A DNA stretch of 7,963 nt from a virus (taxonomy: Duplodnaviria > Heunggongvirae > Uroviricota > Caudoviricetes). A program made the translations under genes and the position numbers. The stretch lies in the IMG/VR virus record IMGVR_UViG_2695420658_000006; one strand, 5' to 3'. The notes beneath the pieces are model-generated. The model saw only the letters and a list, made by a program, of their open reading frames with translations. It did no database searches and was not told the DNA's origin. The first letter of the stretch is position 1. Every line of letters starts with the position of its first letter. Positions 1 to 7,963 of this stretch are shown one piece after another.

Positions 1-187
1 AAGCAAGATAAACAATATCGGGCACTCTAGTTTTTATAATTAACAATTAAACGTCCATAAAATGTTATTTACTTTTCTTCGCTATTGTCATACGATTTTT
101 TATTCTTAATCCAAGAACATACTCCCTACCTATAGCAAAATCACTTTTTTAACAAAAGAATAACGTATTTAGGTAATCATTACGAAT

Positions 188-769
188 TTACCCTATAGGT
201 GCTACTGGCCATTCAATATCCGGTGCAGTTGATGTATCAACACGGTTCAGCAACACCCGATACTTTTTCCAAGCTTCCAGCAACAAGGTTTCTTTCTCCG
301 TTGCGATCTCCAGATCCACAGCATCCTGAAGCGGCGCTATATGCTCACTGGCTACCTGCATCAGGCTGTTTTTTGTTTCTTCCGCCTCCCGGATCCGGAA
401 CAGTTTTTCTGCTTCCGTATCCTTCACCCAGGCTGTGCCGTTCCACTTCTGAAACTCCCCTTCCGGGGATAACCAGGTGACATTTTCCGGTAATGAGCCG
501 AGTTCAGAAATAAATAACGCGTCGCCGGAAGCCACGTCATAAACCGTTTTACCCCGATGATCTTCAACGAGATGCCACGATGACTCATCACTGTTGAAAA
601 CAGCCACGAAACCAGCCGGAATATCTGGCGGTGCAATATCGGTACTGTTTGCAGGCAGACCTGTATGAGGCGGAATATATGCGTCACCTTCACCAATAAA
701 TTCATTAGTTCCGGCCAGCAGGTTATAAATTTTTATGGTCCGTGCTTGTTCACTCATTCTGAATGCCAT
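188..769 (-). CDS. tfa: Tail fibre assembly protein (lambda Tfa-like), 193 aa
   Basis: Complete ORF; ATG at 769-767 and TAA at 190-188. Product begins [41 protein letters not shown], which is near-identical along its length to lambda Tfa as recalled from memory. It sits immediately downstream of stf, and its start overlaps the stf stop by 1 nt (TAATG). Confidence 0.9.
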
Positions 770-3700
770 TATGCGAGCCTCACAATATAGTTAAATGCGA
801 TGTTTTTGACGGTGTTTTCCGCGTTACCAGCAGCGTTAACGGTGATGGTGTGTCCATGTGAACCAATCGCAACAGAGTGCGTATGAGCACCAATACCGAC
901 AGTATGCGCGTGTGCACCCGCAGATGCTGCTGTGCCGGACAGTGAGTGTGTATGGTTTCCTTCTGAAGATGATTTACCTACCCATTGGGAGGTGCCACTG
1001 GTTAATGAGCCACTGATACCAACCTGATTAGTCCCGCTAACTTGAGTACTCCCTGCCGGAAACATTCCAGTAGGTTGACTCCCGCTATTCGTTCTGGGCC
1101 CAGTCTGACTATGTTGGTGGGCCCCAGCTGAACTTGTAGAGCCGCTCAGACTGTGCGTATGCGCCCCGGTGTTATTCGTGGATTTAGTGCCGTAATCAAA
1201 CGACGATGTGGTTTTCGTCCCCAAATCCGTACTGGATGCGCTGGCGCTGTGGGTGTGCGATTTAATGCCATCCTGTTCCTGAGACAATACGGCACGACCA
1301 CTGGCGGGCTTGCCCTTAATCGTCCAGCCACGCATATCAGGGATCACGCCTGACGGATAAGCGGCTGCAAGTTTCGGGTAAGCAGATTTGTCAAAAGTCT
1401 GCCCCTGCATCAGGGCATAACCAGACGGAACGGTATCTGATGGCCACGGGATTGGTGCACCGACTGGATAAAACTCTGCAGGAGGATGAGCCGAGGTGTA
1501 AAGCTGCGCCCACGGCGACCAGTTTGCGTCGGTCGTATCCCGTCGTGAACGAATAAATGCCGGAGCATGAGCACCGCTTGTACCACTCCAGCCGATGAGT
1601 AACTCACCTTCGCCAACGGCTGTCATCCCTTTCAGGTGAATGATATTTCCATACGCTGTTGGATATCCGTTGTTATACACCTCGTATAACTCAAGACCTG
1701 CTGCCCCCTGCGTATTGTCTGTCAGCGCGGCTACCCGACCTTTTGAAGCCAGATTAACTGATGATACTGCTGTTCCACCTGACGGTAGCGCCCCGATCTC
1801 TGATGCCGTTGGCTTATTTCTGGAGTTATAGTCCCTTCGCCAGCCAGGTGAATAATCTGTTCCGTGATTAATATAGGTAAACTGGGCGTTGGTTGTTCCG
1901 CCACCGCTGGATGTGGTCGGAGTGGTAATGCGGATCGTCATCGCTGACTTTATCCCCATTACTTCAATGACAGCTCCGGCGAGATGAATATTACCGCAGC
2001 CAGTATCAGTAATGATTTTATTATTGCCATAAGACCAGGAACCCTTGCACATCCAGTATGGATGGTTAAATGCTCCCTGAGAATCCAGCCACTCGATAAA
2101 CTGTGCAGTCGTCCAGTTTCCTGTTGTTGTGCTTACTGACCCACCGAAGGCACGGCAGGCACCAATATTTTTCGTAAAGGTGTCTTTGCCAGGGATATCC
2201 GCACCGTTCTGATCTTTCTGCAGACGTTTCTCAGCATTGTCATTGGCTGCTTTTACTGCCTTTGGCGTTGCCGCCAGCGTTTCAGACGTGCTGTTGGTCG
2301 CGCTGCTTAGCTGGATTATCCCTTTCTGTGCTGTCGTTGCATCCTGTGCGGTGTATTTCCCGTTAGCCAGGTCATACGCGGCCTTAACGGCTTTTGGTGT
2401 TGCCGCCAGTGACTCGGAAGTGCTGTTAGTCGCACTACTGAGCTGTACTATCCCCTTTTTCGTCGTGCTCGCATCCTCAAGCGCCACGGCGGATGCAATA
2501 TCCTCTGCCCGTTTTGCCGCTGTCTCAGCGCGCGTTGCTGCAGATTCCGCCGTACTTTTGCTCTGAGCTGCTGCCGTCGCACTACCAGCAGCCTCTGTCG
2601 CCTTCGTGGATGCCGTCGTGGCGCTGCCCTTCGCTGCTGACGCCTGTCTGGTCGCCTCATCTTTTGAAGCAGACGCCGATGATGCCGATGACGCCGCCGA
2701 ACTGGCGGACGATGCGGCAGCCGTTTTTGAGGATTCTGCACGGGTTTCCGACGCTTTCGCGTTCGTTTCGGATGTCTTCGCTGCGGAAGCTGACCTCGCT
2801 GCTGCCGTGGCCTGCTCAGTGGCTTCGCCAGCCTTCGTTGTGGCTGTTGAAGCGGATGATGCGGCGCTTTCTGCCGATTTTCCGGCGGCGGTGGCACTGG
2901 CTGAGGCCTGCCCGGCACTTGTTGACGCGGCGCTGGCAGACGACGCAGCCGCTGTTTTTGAGCCTGCCGCAGCTGAGGCACTCTGTCCCGCTGCCGTTTC
3001 AGAAGACCTGGCGTTCGTCTCGGACGTTTTGGCCGCCTTCGCAGAATTTGCAGCCGCCGTCGCCGAGGAAGCTGCGCTACTGGCGCTTGATGATGCGTTC
3101 GTTTCTGATGATTTTGCCGCCTCTTTTGAAGCCGACGCATCCCGGGCTGAGGTGGCAGCTTCTGACGCTTTCGTGGTCGCGGTGGATGCAGAAGTGGCTG
3201 CTGATTGTTGTGACGCTGCCGCATTCGTTTCTAACGTTTTCGCCGCACCGGCACTGGTAGCCGCCGCGCTTTTTGAGGACTCTGCAGCGGCAGCACTTTT
3301 TGAGGCTTCAGTGGCCTTTGTTGATGCCGTTCCTGCGCTGGAAGACGCTGACTGAGCCGACGAAGCGGCCTGTCCGGCTGACGTGCTGGCTGCACGTGCT
3401 GAATCTGCAGCATCAGTCGCATGGGTTGCCGCCTCACGGGCTGATGTGCTGGCATCGCTGGCTGATTTCTTCGCGGCTGCCGTGTTCTGTGCCACCGCGG
3501 ACGCGTTACGCGCCACCTCTTCCACCATCAGCTCAAAACGGCGCAGTGCCTCCGGACGGGCATCATCCTCCGTCATGGCACCGAGAAAATCATTCAGCGT
3601 ACCGGGTCGGGAATCTTCATACACGGTGATGGTCCCGGCATGTGACGGCGGGAATCCTTCCACCAACAGAATAACGCTGTACTGACCGTACTCAACGTCC

Positions 3701-3852
3701 ATGCTGTAACGCCCGGCTTCATCCGGATTTTCTGAGGCCAGCGTGTTCACCACCACCGTGGTGCTGTTACGTTTTGCTTTCAGCTGGATTGTGCAGTTCT
3801 GTACCGGTTTTCCTGTGCCGTCTTTCAGTACACCTGAAATCTTTACTGCCAT
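769..3852 (-). CDS. stf: Side tail fibre protein (lambda Stf-like), about 1027 aa
   Basis: Start placed at the ATG at 3852-3850 ([26 protein letters not shown]..., matching the lambda Stf N-terminus) rather than the GTG at 3858 used by the ORF track; a GGGG Shine-Dalgarno-like motif lies 5-8 nt upstream. Stop TAA at 771-769. Contains a long Ala/Ser/Thr-rich low-complexity region, two tail-fibre repeat motifs, and C-terminal His-rich GAHxHS repeats ending ...[18 protein letters not shown], typical of Stf/T4 gp37-like distal fibre tips. Confidence 0.9.
2239..2460 (-). repeat. Two tandem copies of the phage tail-fibre repeat motif within stf (coding repeat)
   Basis: [30 protein letters not shown] (2371-2460) and [30 protein letters not shown] (2239-2328), 30 aa each with a 14-aa spacer. 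Lambda Stf carries one such motif ([24 protein letters not shown]) as I recall it. Confidence 0.8.
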
Positions 3853-3863
3853 ATTCACCCCAC

Positions 3864-3890
3864 AAAAAAGCCCGCCTGAACCGGCGGGCT
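3864..3890 (-). terminator. Rho-independent terminator downstream of lom, immediately upstream of the stf start
   Basis: On the minus strand: 8-bp GC-rich stem (AGCCCGCC / GGCGGGCT, plus 3869-3876 pairing with 3883-3890), 6-nt loop, followed by a U-tract (plus-strand A run 3864-3868). It lies 27 nt past the lom stop (3917-3919). Confidence 0.65.
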
Positions 3891-3895
3891 GTCAT

Positions 3896-4219
3896 AACAC
3901 TGTGTTACCTGGCTAATCAGAATTTATAACCGACACCCACGATGAAACCGTCAGTGCGCCAGTCACCACTGCCGGAACCTTCATAAGCAAGGTCAATGGC
4001 CACGGATTCGGTCGGGTTAAACTGCACGCCAGCCCCCCACGCCAGAGACGTGTNNNNNNNNNNNNNNNNNNNNNNNNNNNNNNNNNNNNNNNNNNNNNNN
4101 NNNNNNNNNNNNNNNNNNNNNNNNNNNNNNNNNNNNNNNNNNNNNNNNNNAACACTGTGTTACCTGGCTAATCAGAATTTATAACCGACACCCACGATGA
4201 AACCGTCAGTGCGCCAGAG
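3896..4219 (+). repeat. 69-bp perfect direct repeat (3896-3964 and 4151-4219) flanking the N run 4054-4150
   Basis: Both copies read aacactgtgttacctggctaatcagaatttataaccgacacccacgatgaaaccgtcagtgcgccag. Copy 1 continues into the intact lom 3' end; copy 2 joins directly to agacgtgt, i.e. it lacks the 83 nt at 3963-4045. Confidence 0.9.
3917..4053 (-). CDS. lom: Lom C-terminal segment (3' end of a lom reading frame; upstream part lost in the N run 4054-4150)
   Basis: Minus-strand translation reads ...NTSLAWGAGVQFNPTESVAIDLAYEGSGSGDWRTDGFIVGVGYKF followed by TGA (3919-3917). This matches the lambda Lom C-terminus as recalled, including the terminal aromatic residue typical of outer-membrane beta-barrels. 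Confidence 0.75.
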
Positions 4220-4688
4220 ACGTGTTGCTGTGGCGACCGTCATCACTTCCGGTCAGCACATCGTGCGTTTTCCCCTTATTGTCAGTTACGCGGATATAAT
4301 CCCCGGAAAAAGTCGACACACGGCTGTAAGCCACACCCGCCATCGCATACGCGCTGAACCATTCATTCACGCGCACAGACGGCCCCGCCATCACGCTGAA
4401 CCAGCGGTTACGCACGGAATCTTCATGCCAGCGGGTATCGCTGTAACGGGTCAGCTGGCGATTCTTGTCTCCTGCATAGCTGAATGACGTCACCAGCCCC
4501 AGCGTATCCGTAAACTCATAACGGTATTTCACGTTAATCCCGTTCAGATCATCACTGCCGGGAACGTTGGTCCGGGCATGAAGATACCCCGCGCTCAGCG
4601 TGGACTGATGTTCAGACGCCCATGCAGGCGCACCGGATACGGCCAGGCAAATGGCTGCGGACAAAATGGCTGCACAAACTTTACGCAT
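4206..4688 (-). pseudogene. lom: Lom/Ail-family outer-membrane protein, C-terminally truncated copy (160 aa; possible pseudogene or contig-join artefact)
   Basis: ATG at 4688-4686 with a GAGAGG Shine-Dalgarno motif 5 nt upstream. Signal peptide MRKVCAAILSAAICLAVSGAPAWA, then a mature region close to lambda Lom. The frame ends ...RHSNTSLAH-stop at 4206, where lambda-like Lom continues ...SLAWGAGVQFNPT...GYKF. The break is an 83-nt deletion between two cgccag direct repeats. Confidence 0.8.
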
Positions 4689-4710
4689 AATTACCTCTCG
4701 CTTTTCTGCA

Positions 4711-4736
4711 ATAAAAAAGGCACCATTTCTGGTGCC
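4711..4736 (-). terminator. Putative Rho-independent terminator between the J 3' end and the lom start
   Basis: On the minus strand: 6-bp stem (GGCACC / GGUGCC, plus 4719-4724 and 4731-4736), 6-nt loop, followed by a U-rich tract (plus 4711-4718 ataaaaaa). It sits about 23 nt upstream of the lom ATG. The upstream context is hidden by the N run starting at 4741. Confidence 0.5.
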
Positions 4737-5015
4737 CGTANNNNNNNNNNNNNNNNNNNNNNNNNNNNNNNNNNNNNNNNNNNNNNNNNNNNNNNNNNNN
4801 NNNNNNNNNNNNNNNNNNNNNNNNNNNNNNNNNNNNNNNNNNNNNNNNNNNNNNNNNNNNNNNNNNNNNNNNNNNNNNNNNNNNNNNNNNNNNNNNNNNN
4901 NNNNNNNNNNNNNNNNNNNNNNNNNNNNNNNNNNNNNNNNNNNNNNNNNNNNNNNNNNNNNNNNNNNNNNNNNNNNNNNNNNNNNNNNNNNNNNNNNNNN
5001 NNNNNNNNNNNNNNN

Positions 5016-5409
5016 ACCCGTGTATCGCGTGCCTCCTGGGTTATTTCCGCTCCCCGGATCGTCATACGCTATACCGTTAAAAATAATGGGCGGAATAATA
5101 ATCTGGCGGTCAAAGTTATGATCATCGCTTATGGTGACTGTAACCGTCCCGTTTGGTGTTTCCGTGTTACCCCACGTACCAGCCTGTTTCGGAAATGATT
5201 TGGATACAGCTTTAACGAAGTCACCTCTGACCTGAGTCGCCTCCAGCATGCCCTTAATCGTACAGTTTTCATTTACCGTGACATTGTTGAGCGTCCCGGC
5301 GTTCGCATTCACACTGCCACTGATATCCGCATTTTTAGCGGTCAGCTTTCCGTCCGGAGTCAGGGAAAATGCCGATGGATTTCCACCGCTGGTAATGGTG
5401 GGGGCCGTC
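5016..5409 (-). CDS. J: J C-terminal region segment (segment C), partial, bounded by N runs on both sides
   Basis: Minus-strand translation [75 protein letters not shown]...[21 protein letters not shown]...GGTRYTG is colinear with the receptor-binding C-terminal part of lambda J as recalled. No stop is visible; the J stop presumably lies in the N run 4741-5015. Confidence 0.75.
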
Positions 5410-5628
5410 NNNNNNNNNNNNNNNNNNNNNNNNNNNNNNNNNNNNNNNNNNNNNNNNNNNNNNNNNNNNNNNNNNNNNNNNNNNNNNNNNNNNNNNNNNN
5501 NNNNNNNNNNNNNNNNNNNNNNNNNNNNNNNNNNNNNNNNAATAAATATTGTTATTCTTCCGCTCATGTTTAGCACCGCGAAACGCCACCGCGGGAATAA
5601 CAATNNNNNNNNNNNNNNNNNNNNNNNN

Positions 5629-6349
5629 CATAAACCCTGACGGTAATGGTCCCTGATGGCCACCTCTCCGGTGCCCGGGAGTCCCGTGGGAAAGGTTTGC
5701 CCACTGTTTTAACGAGATCGCCTTCAATCTGGTTCGCGGACAATTTTCCCAGAACCCGACAGTTCTTATTAATCGTGACGTTGTTGAGCGTCCCGGAGTT
5801 CGCGTTCACGTTACCGCTGATATCGGCATTTTTCGCCGTCAGCCGTCCGCCAGGTGTCAGGGAAAATGCCGGAGGATTACCGCCGCTGGTAATGGTCGGA
5901 GCCGTCAGGCATTTCAGGAACACGTCGTTCATGAATATCTGATCGCCCTGACCAACAAACATCGGCTTTGTGTTGCCATTCGCAGGATTAATCATCGCAA
6001 TCCTGTCTGCCGCCAGCAGCACCTGACTCTGCATTCCTGCTGGCGTATTCTCAATACCGGCACCGATACCCGCAATATAAAGGCGTCCGTCCTTCATCTG
6101 TTGCAGCTTCACAGCCCACATGCTGTTCAGGTTATTATTTGTATCAACCTGAACTTTCTGTATCTGCTGGATTGCAGCACTCTGATTTTCCAGTTTTTTA
6201 TTNNNNNNNNNNNNNNNNCTGACATTCGTAATGGACGTCCTGATTTCAGTCAGGTCCGGCGCAAGCTGACCGTTATCAATCTGCGTCCACAACTCCTTGC
6301 CGAGATGCGTTTTATTGATCAACCCTTTATAAAAATTCAGATAACCTTC
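5629..6349 (-). CDS. J: J segment (segment B): divergent second copy of the central to C-terminal J region, partial, with an internal N16
   Basis: Minus-strand translation [43 protein letters not shown][N16][56 protein letters not shown]...[41 protein letters not shown]...[11 protein letters not shown]. It duplicates the end of segment A (roughly 90% nt identity by eye) and the start of segment C (roughly 80%), and is in a different codon phase from both. Confidence 0.75.
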
Positions 6350-6579
6350 NNNNNNNNNNNNNNNNNNNNNNNNNNNNNNNNNNNNNNNNNNNNNNNNNNN
6401 NNNNNNNNNNNNNNNNNNNNNNNNNNNNNNNNNNNNNNNNNNNNNNNNNNNNNNNNNNNNNNNNNNNNNNNNNNNNNNNNNNNNNNNNNNNNNNNNNNNN
6501 NNNNNNNNNNNNNNNNNNNNNNNNNNNNNNNNNNNNNNNNNNNNNNNNNNNNNNNNNNNNNNNNNNNNNNNNNNNNNNN

Positions 6580-7963
6580 ATACCCGCGATATAAAGGCGT
6601 CCGTCCTGCATCTGCTGCAGCTTCACAGCCCACATGCTGTTCAGGTTATTATTTGTATCAACCTGAACCTTCTGTATCTGCTGAATTGCCGCACTCTGGT
6701 CTTCCAGTTTCTTATTGACGGTCTGCGTGATTTCATTGCTGACATCCGTAATGGACGTCCTGATTTCAGCCAGGTCAGGCGCAAGCTGACCGTTATCAAT
6801 CTGCGTCCACAGCTCCTGAGCCAGATGGGTTTTCCCTATCTCGCCTTTGAAAAAATCCAGATAACCGGATGCATCATCACTCGGCTGACCAACAGCCTCC
6901 ACGAATGCCGATTTGCCAACGGTGTTCACACTGCGGATATAAAAGTAATAATCATGGCCCGGTTTGATATTGATACTGGCGGCTATCCAGTACAGCGCCG
7001 TGCCAAGATAGCGTGCTGTGGTTTCAACCTGCCTGATATCCGCAATCCGCTTTTCCGAGAACCAGAACTCAAACTGTACCGTCGGATCATAAACCGCAAG
7101 ATGCGGCGTGGCGGTTATCTGAAAATAGCCCGGCGTCAGCTCAATCCGCGACAGCGCTGCCGGTGCGGCAATCCGGAACGATACCGACGCCGGATCGCCC
7201 TGCTGCCCCCACGCATTTACTGCCCGGACTGTCAGCCTGTAGTTCCCCAGCGCCAGTTGTGTGAAGCGGTAAGTGGTTTCCGTCGTCCGGGCCGTGCTGA
7301 CCAGCCGCTCACTGCCGTCATCCGCTGTTACGGTCAGACGGAGCAGGAAGCTCACGCCCTTCACCACCTTCGGCGTGTCCCAGCGCGCCAGCACCTGATA
7401 TTCCCCGCTGTCTGCGGTGACTTCGGCAGTCAGGTGCTGCACCGCTGGCGGCGTGACACCATTCACCGTGCCGCTCTGGTCGCCGTCAAAGTGCGCCCCG
7501 TTATCCACGATGGCTTCTTTTTCCGGCACATGCTGCACGGCGGTGATGGCATACGTGCCGTCGTCGTTCTCACGGATACTCACGCAGCGGAACAATCGCT
7601 GGTGCAGCGTCGGCAGCTTCAGCCCCCACACGCTGTATTCAGCAACACCGTCAGGAACACGGCTCACTTTTACCTTCACGCCGTCGGTGACGGACTGGAC
7701 CTCCACGCTGACCGGATTCCCCTGCCCGTCAACCAGGCTTATCAGCGTGGTGCCGGAGGATGGCAGCGTGATTTCACGGTCGAGCGTCAGCGTCCGGGTC
7801 TGGCTGTTCACCGCCAGCACGCGCCCGCCGGTGCGGATACCGGCATAGTCATCATCGCAGATTTCAATGACATCGCCCGGTACATGACGAAGCCCTTCAG
7901 CACCCACGCTGAAATCCACGGTCTGCGTCTCCAGCAGTTCCGTTTTAATCAGCCACAGCCCGG
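6580..7963 (-). CDS. J: Host-specificity / tail-tip protein J, 5'-partial (continues beyond the window end), interrupted 3' by the N run 6350-6579
   Basis: The open frame runs off the window at 7963 (...[67 protein letters not shown]...). The fibronectin-III-like central region ([29 protein letters not shown]...) and ...[57 protein letters not shown]...DGRLYIAG match lambda J architecture as recalled. The M at 7919 in the ORF track is an internal GTG, not the start. Confidence 0.85.

Follow-up and report, generated by a model that had tools for sequence, protein, structure and literature searches.

A tandem array of J host-specificity segments in a lambdoid prophage scaffold very probably reflects mis-scaffolding of two paralogous Shigella sonnei loci

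In phage lambda, the gene for the host-specificity protein gpJ opens the canonical gene order J-lom-stf-tfa, and gpJ itself carries the domain series FNIII-A_GpJ, Phage-tail_3, Ig_J, Ig_J_second, Phage_Tail_Tip and Ig_GpJ_C. Here we analyze a prophage-derived DNA stretch of 7,963 nucleotides (nt), IMG/VR record IMGVR_UViG_2695420658_000006 (the whole of which is referred to as the window), in which an earlier reading of the sequence, the original prediction, had described three overlapping J segments, A, B and C, lying in tandem next to lom. That reading left two alternatives, namely direct-repeat remnants of alternative J receptor-binding ends carried by the genome, or contigs from several paralogous lambdoid prophages joined wrongly. 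Our analysis supports the latter with high confidence: the tandem J array is very probably a product of mis-scaffolding that interleaves two paralogous S. sonnei prophage loci. One of these, locus 1, has the lambda gene order and the lambda J domain order, and differs from lambda in a lom gene that bears an 83-nt frameshifting deletion typical of S. sonnei.

Two other kinds of described system invite comparison. The invertible segments of Mu (G), P1 (C) and e14 (P), which are served by Gin, Cin and Pin, and diversity-generating retroelements also give one tail gene several receptor-binding ends, but the likeness is superficial, as the copies in the window are direct rather than inverted and are not contiguous in real sequence. 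A closer match is found in the false joins made by paired-read scaffolders, as in the Velvet, SSPACE and GapFiller pipeline (PMC5320598). With these the window shares irregular lengths of its runs of N, redundancy bounded by such runs, a duplication across a gap, switches between paralogs inside exact repeats, mapping to two loci, and recurrence with other breakpoints in sibling assemblies.

J pieces and the N runs between them

The window is the reverse complement of the entire deposited scaffold CXCK01000176.1 (draft GCA_001260575.1), a small scaffold of a short-read assembly whose source is almost certainly S. sonnei. All of its genes lie on the minus strand and comprise tfa, stf, lom (in two pieces around a run of 97 Ns, N97; other runs are named likewise) and four J-like pieces. 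These are also the genes represented among open reading frames (ORFs) of at least 100 amino acids (aa), the remaining ORFs either overlapping them or crossing N runs; a 250-aa ORF (5570-6322) that crosses N16 and N24 matched one record only, CXCK01000176.1 itself, and a database look-up of a 485-aa ORF (4206-5663) spanning Ns gave no match. Reading the window again, we recovered the three same-strand, overlapping J segments at the positions and with the ends and starts first described: A has the C-terminal end ...DGRLYIAG, and B (5629-6349) begins at EGYLNFYKG...KTHL, about 95 codons before A's end. The overlaps amount to 137 nt at 93% and 128 nt at 85% identity between A and B, and to 219 nt at 75% between B and C, and they are true homology rather than chance. 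A and C have no mutual overlap and are successive parts of one gene, and in terms of J coordinates B extends over the last part of A and the beginning of C. The description of three mutually divergent segments therefore stands as far as the homology of the overlaps is concerned but not in the number of copies, since A and C are one gene and only B, together with a short island termed X, represents a second paralog.

Six N runs interrupt the window and are positioned exactly at every J restart, a coincidence that the original prediction had passed over along with island X (5541-5604) and a 67-nt duplication in lom. Because all restarts fall on Ns, no redundant junction has been sequenced; every one of them consists of N. 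The runs are present in the deposited scaffold and are thus the assembly's own. Their lengths disagree with real distances: references hold 22 nt at N16 and 23 nt at N24, so that N lengths are estimates, and N275 stands for ~259 nt. In the reference, segment B spans 727 nt as opposed to 721 nt in the window, the spacing of X to B1 (the larger of B's two pieces) is 23 nt in the genomes that X matches, and in protein P0102 (proteins and loci used for comparison are labelled P and L) island X continues B1 without interruption through the site of N24 (...TVRVY-DDQPFDRQ-IVIPAVAF...). The inexact lengths account for two properties of B that had been read literally. The apparent in-frame change relative to A, written NV-N16-NKK in B, is a by-product of N16 standing for 22 nt, and the shift of B into another codon phase, which we do find when the Ns are counted as they stand (phase 1 for B, phase 2 for A and C), has the same origin. 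One could instead take the N runs as length-preserving masks and the literal layout as the true molecule, and it is the case that B2-N16-B1 stays in frame when N is counted literally. However, N24 breaks the frame, both runs replace stretches of a different length, redundant sequence stands on both sides of N97, and the Ns belong to the deposited scaffold itself, which leaves this explanation with practically no chance of being correct.

The pieces belong to two paralogs, not three, with A and C coming from locus 1 and B and X from locus 2 (Table 1). Pfam places the end of Phage-tail_3, Ig_J, Ig_J_second and the start of Phage_Tail_Tip in segment A, Phage_Tail_Tip in B1, and Ig_GpJ_C in segment C. 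When each segment was searched separately, as the original prediction had proposed, A, B and C each matched J genes in thousands of E. coli genomes and found their best matches in different genomes. In the same E. coli genome search X matched 10 genomes, 9 of them exactly, and 8 of these 9 are among the top nine matches of B. The arrangement of the pieces in single genomes agrees with this division: A, C, lom and stf are colinear in E. coli LD93-1, and B2, B1 and X are colinear at 99.2-100% identity in the enteroinvasive E. coli (EIEC) strain CFSAN029787, where the real gaps between them are 22 and 23 nt. Nearly all matches to the 191-aa translation of B1 were contig-end fragments, with no full-length J among them, and the search for the locus-2 J was repeated with the full-length protein, J', as query.

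Two J-lom loci in S. sonnei

Window positions 93-3962 and 4151-4721, segment C (394 of 394 positions in L004-L009 and L011-L019, one mismatch in L010) and segment A match complete S. sonnei chromosomes (L004, L006, L007 and others) colinearly and at 100% identity. In these chromosomes the J of locus 1 is a single 1165-aa gene with the full gpJ domain series, and C is followed by the remainder of J, a spacer, lom, stf and tfa. The distance from A to C is 159 nt there, as against 1,170 nt in the window, and the path that corresponds to window positions 93-7963 takes 6,570 nt of real sequence rather than 7,871 nt, the excess of 1,301 nt being distributed over the lom gap (255 nt), the interval from C to lom (35 nt) and the interval from A to C (1,011 nt). 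One J is present in each of the 16 S. sonnei locus-1 loci retrieved, 12 of them from chromosome-scale records (4.8-5.0 Mb), and a full-length J with all six domains, flanked by the tail genes L, K and I and by lom, is found in L004-L019 and L024-L030. The stf and tfa proteins of the window recur exactly in thousands of assemblies, many of which are complete chromosomes of 4.8-5.0 Mb; one complete chromosome that carries the locus 1 proteins, HE616528.1, we take to be that of S. sonnei 53G. On the chromosome, locus 1 is accompanied by IS1, an integrase gene, a gene resembling yfdC, and mlaA. The real order of the pieces in this region is A - 159 nt - C - ~259 nt - lom - stf - tfa, with a single J gene. 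A single J in the finished genomes of this lineage goes against the first of the two alternatives, direct-repeat remnants of J ends in the genome. It is also, at the level of the lineage, the outcome named in advance as the mark of mis-scaffolding, one continuous J upstream of lom with B mapping to another locus, except that C, which had been expected to lie elsewhere along with B, is part of locus 1.

B2, B1, X and window positions 3963-4053 match one other J-lom locus, colinearly and at 99.2-100% identity. The pieces thus map to two distinct loci, in agreement with the second alternative of wrongly joined contigs from paralogous lambdoid prophages. The J' of locus 2 (P0163, 1159 aa) bears the name 'host specificity protein J [Shigella sonnei]' and is found on 105 contigs, one of which measures 4.9 Mb. 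Locus 2 holds a second tail module that is complete, and after it come lom', a fibre of 470 aa, DUF4376, an ipaH-type effector, dinI, aspS, nudB, yebC and ruvC. Many drafts that were not scaffolded contain separate contigs of 1-2 kb with B/X-type C-terminal ends under the label 'partial [Shigella sonnei]'. When the two loci are aligned, exact repeats of up to 86 nt alternate with divergent stretches, and divergence is greatest in the last ~130 codons of J, its receptor-binding end.

The B, X and lom' pieces are 99-100% identical to the locus of EIEC CFSAN029787, and this identity would fit a mixed or contaminated sample in which the B-type pieces stem from a second strain, such as an EIEC or another Shigella, the tandem layout being an artefact all the same. 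Such an origin is highly improbable given that J' is annotated in S. sonnei on the contigs described above, including the 4.9-Mb one, that fragments of the B/X type appear in many independent S. sonnei drafts, and that two further S. sonnei drafts mix the same two loci.

In the Logan contigs L020-L023, a frameshift divides J' of the locus-2 type into ORFs of 912 and 255 aa, and the sequence shows 2 mismatches and a 1-nt gap relative to B1.

Table 1. Positions of genes, gene fragments and N runs in the 7,963-nt window
Feature	Position	Strand	Assignment and comparison
tfa, tail fibre assembly protein, 193 aa	188-769	-	Locus 1; Pfam Caudo_TAP; exact protein beside stf in complete S. sonnei chromosomes
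stf, side tail fibre, 1027 aa	769-3852	-	Locus 1; identical protein in ~3,700 blocks of the collection, complete chromosomes among them
lom 3' end and stop, first copy of 67-nt duplication	3896-3962	-	Locus 1; match of the first piece to locus 1 ends at 3962
lom' fragment	3963-4053	-	Intact lom of locus 2; 88/88 to L001, 90/91 to L024-L029; no locus-1 match
N97	4054-4150		Spurious gap; in real locus 1, 3962 is followed directly by 4218 (lom piece 4151-4731 contiguous in L004/L006)
lom 3' end, second (redundant) copy	4151-4217	-	100% identical to 3896-3962
lom of locus 1	4206-4688	-	160-aa product, 83-nt frameshifting deletion; Pfam Ail_Lom positions 1-159 of 199
End of lom piece	4722-4740	-	Locus-2-type J-lom intergenic hairpin; 8 mismatches to locus 1
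N275	4741-5015		Replaces ~259 nt of true locus-1 sequence (J 3' end and J-lom spacer)
Segment C	5016-5409	-	Locus 1 J aa 961-1092 of 1165, start of the receptor-binding C-terminal domain
N131	5410-5540		Artefactual join of a locus-1 piece to a locus-2 piece
Island X	5541-5604	-	Locus 2 J' aa 1062-1083 of 1159; 64/64 identical to L001, L020-L030
N24	5605-5628		Replaces 23 real nt (DDQPFDRQ codons)
Segment B1	5629-6202	-	Locus 2 J' aa 863-1054; 573/574 identical to L024-L030, 90% to locus 1
N16	6203-6218		Replaces 22 real nt (SNEITQTV region)
Segment B2	6219-6349	-	Locus 2 J' aa 812-855; 130/131 identical to L024-L030 and L001, 85% to locus 1
N230	6350-6579		Artefactual join of locus-2 to locus-1 pieces
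Segment A	6580-7963	-	Locus 1 J aa 447-908 of 1165, truncated by scaffold end; 1384/1384 identical to L004-L019

Sibling drafts and the origin of the layout

Comparable layouts are found in other assemblies. Two S. sonnei drafts have genes for 'J' proteins of 1512 and 1720 aa, namely CXBN01000105.1, whose accession series neighbours that of the window's scaffold, and FTVF01000064.1. Their contigs present locus 1 and locus 2 sequence in serial repeats, with every restart at a single N or at N11. In L031, the 3' part of the locus-1 J occurs twice at 100% identity with the end of the locus-2 J' between the copies. Breakpoints and layouts differ among the drafts (L031, L032), and each chimeric protein is found on one contig only; non-recurrent breakpoints of this kind, together with the confinement of each protein to one contig, are the behaviour of an artefact and not of an inherited structure.

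Over-long chimeric J proteins with internal repeated segments have been deposited under normal names, as in P0151, P0156 and P0158 (1720, 1512 and 1304 aa). P0151 and P0156 come from scaffolds with single-N joins, and P0158 lies on a 904-kb contig. A further J of the E. coli type, P0152 (1882 aa), is labelled Bacillus thuringiensis Sbt003 and probably represents contaminating enterobacterial DNA combined with a duplication artefact of the same kind.

Within the pieces of the window, switches from one paralog to the other occur at exact repeats. Segment C starts at the end of a 65-nt exact inter-locus repeat, the lom piece switches at the edge of a 71-nt exact repeat, with window positions 4700-4740 identical to locus 2 at 41 of 41 positions (L001/L020/L024), and the first piece switches at a 39-nt exact repeat. 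In this first piece, positions 3963-4053 correspond exactly to the part of lom that locus 1 has lost, joined within the shared repeat to locus-1 sequence, and the 67 nt of the lom 3' end are duplicated exactly on either side of N97.

The probable course of events starts from a genome with two or more lambdoid tail modules, in whose J-lom regions long exact repeats take turns with divergent stretches. The assembler would resolve only the divergent stretches, as short contigs, and some contig ends would stray into the other paralog within shared repeats by path-switching in the assembly graph. A paired-read scaffolder would then link the pieces through the shared repeats and set competing versions of one position in series, separated by N gaps of estimated size. 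The identities, the colinearity, the N positions, the source record and the recurrence in sibling drafts are observed, and we infer only the particular software and the exact graph events. The Velvet, SSPACE and GapFiller pipeline is built of greedy tools with which false joins are possible, and N runs are put at the joins before GapFiller tries to close them (PMC5320598); S. sonnei drafts from this pipeline average 405 contigs (PMC5320598).

Several points weigh against mis-scaffolding of two loci, or against parts of the course just described. The presence of locus 2 elsewhere in this isolate is suggested by other S. sonnei genomes and by the occurrence of both types in this assembly, and in a look-up that merges similar places the contigs listed for P0163 were drafts only. 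Likewise, it is the accession series and the style of the gaps that point to CXCK01000176.1 having come from the Velvet, SSPACE and GapFiller pipeline. Finally, at the end of A (L004 8574) and at the two short gaps within B there is no exact inter-locus repeat of at least 31 nt. The N-terminal part of P0151 hints at a third J paralog, and either this or low coverage may be involved at these three places.

A real tandem array would consist of direct-repeat remnants of alternative J receptor-binding ends, left between J and lom by illegitimate or homologous recombination between prophages. In its favour, the pieces share one strand and follow the order of J, their placement together by a scaffolder presupposes some read-pair links, and C-terminal remnants of J do occur in defective prophages. 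Against this, none of the junctions is sequenced, and all of them would have to be unassemblable; finished genomes of the lineage have one unbroken J, to which A and C are 100% identical; and B, X and the lom' bits derive, in colinear order, from a locus at another site. An array of this kind would in addition need a partial lom duplication with an exact 67-nt repeat across an N gap, and the sibling drafts have differing, non-recurrent layouts. Taken together, we consider a real array extremely unlikely. The same very slight chance attaches to the narrower proposal that in this isolate only, a J'-derived block recombined between the halves of the locus-1 J to give a genuine array of receptor-binding ends that short reads left gapped. 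We therefore retain mis-scaffolding of the two loci as the explanation of the layout.

Two mechanisms that diversify tail genes were considered separately and rejected. An invertible tail-fibre cassette does not agree with segments that lie on the same strand without flanking inverted repeats, the only inverted repeat in the window being a 27-nt match of 70% inside X, and no invertase is found among the window ORFs identified, where the ORFs that cross Ns or overlap other genes were not profile-scanned for a recombinase. A diversity-generating retroelement was rejected as the mismatches are spread over all four bases in an ordinary mix of transitions and transversions with no adenine bias, and there is no reverse transcriptase among the identified window ORFs (tfa, stf, lom and the J pieces).

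The lom, stf and tfa genes and the consequences for public records

The 160-aa lom product is identical to 'outer membrane protein [Shigella sonnei]' (Ss046, Q3YZL0), which is found on 861 contigs. In E. coli genomes, whose lom is intact, the corresponding stretch spans 673 nt, as compared with 590 nt here, where the deletion junction lies at 4217/4218; the 83-nt deletion appears to be fixed in the S. sonnei lineage. A search with window positions 4196-4245, which contain the junction, gave 0 exact matches in species-representative genomes, among which S. sonnei is not included. The possibility that the junction is itself an assembly chimera was rejected, as complete chromosomes and Ss046 identify it as a genuine S. 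sonnei lom allele. Between J and lom, a terminator-like hairpin at 4716-4733 reads GGCACCA-TTTC-TGGTGCC, which is of the locus-2 type, and its counterpart in locus 1 reads GGCGTCA-TTCC-TGACGCC; the differences between the loci are compensatory double changes that keep the stem.

The stf gene contains families of internal direct repeats at 2239-3286, comprising 46-nt and 29-nt units in five copies each at 61-76% identity and an additional 107-nt pair, all of them the counterpart of the repetitive, Ala-rich shaft in the fibre protein. For stf as a whole, an exact-sequence cluster look-up returned 'absent' and the contig look-up returned ~3,700 blocks. Downstream of tfa, at window positions 92/93, a 79-nt stretch (TCTTAATATAGTGGC...CTTTCATGG) is missing that is present in all 16 fetched S. 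sonnei locus-1 loci and in L030. As there is no N at this position, the absence is either a real deletion in the isolate or a gap that was closed wrongly.

The real locus is an ordinary lambdoid J-lom-stf-tfa module whose only oddity is the 83-nt lom deletion, and the finding accordingly carries no biological weight of its own; its relevance is one of data hygiene. Through the same artefact in sibling drafts, over-long 'host specificity proteins' (1512 and 1720 aa) have entered public protein databases, and scans that take N-containing scaffolds literally will go on reporting spurious tandem receptor-binding cassettes in any genome with several lambdoid prophages. This class can be filtered out simply, by checking whether all repeat junctions fall on N runs and by regarding junctions that do as unsupported.

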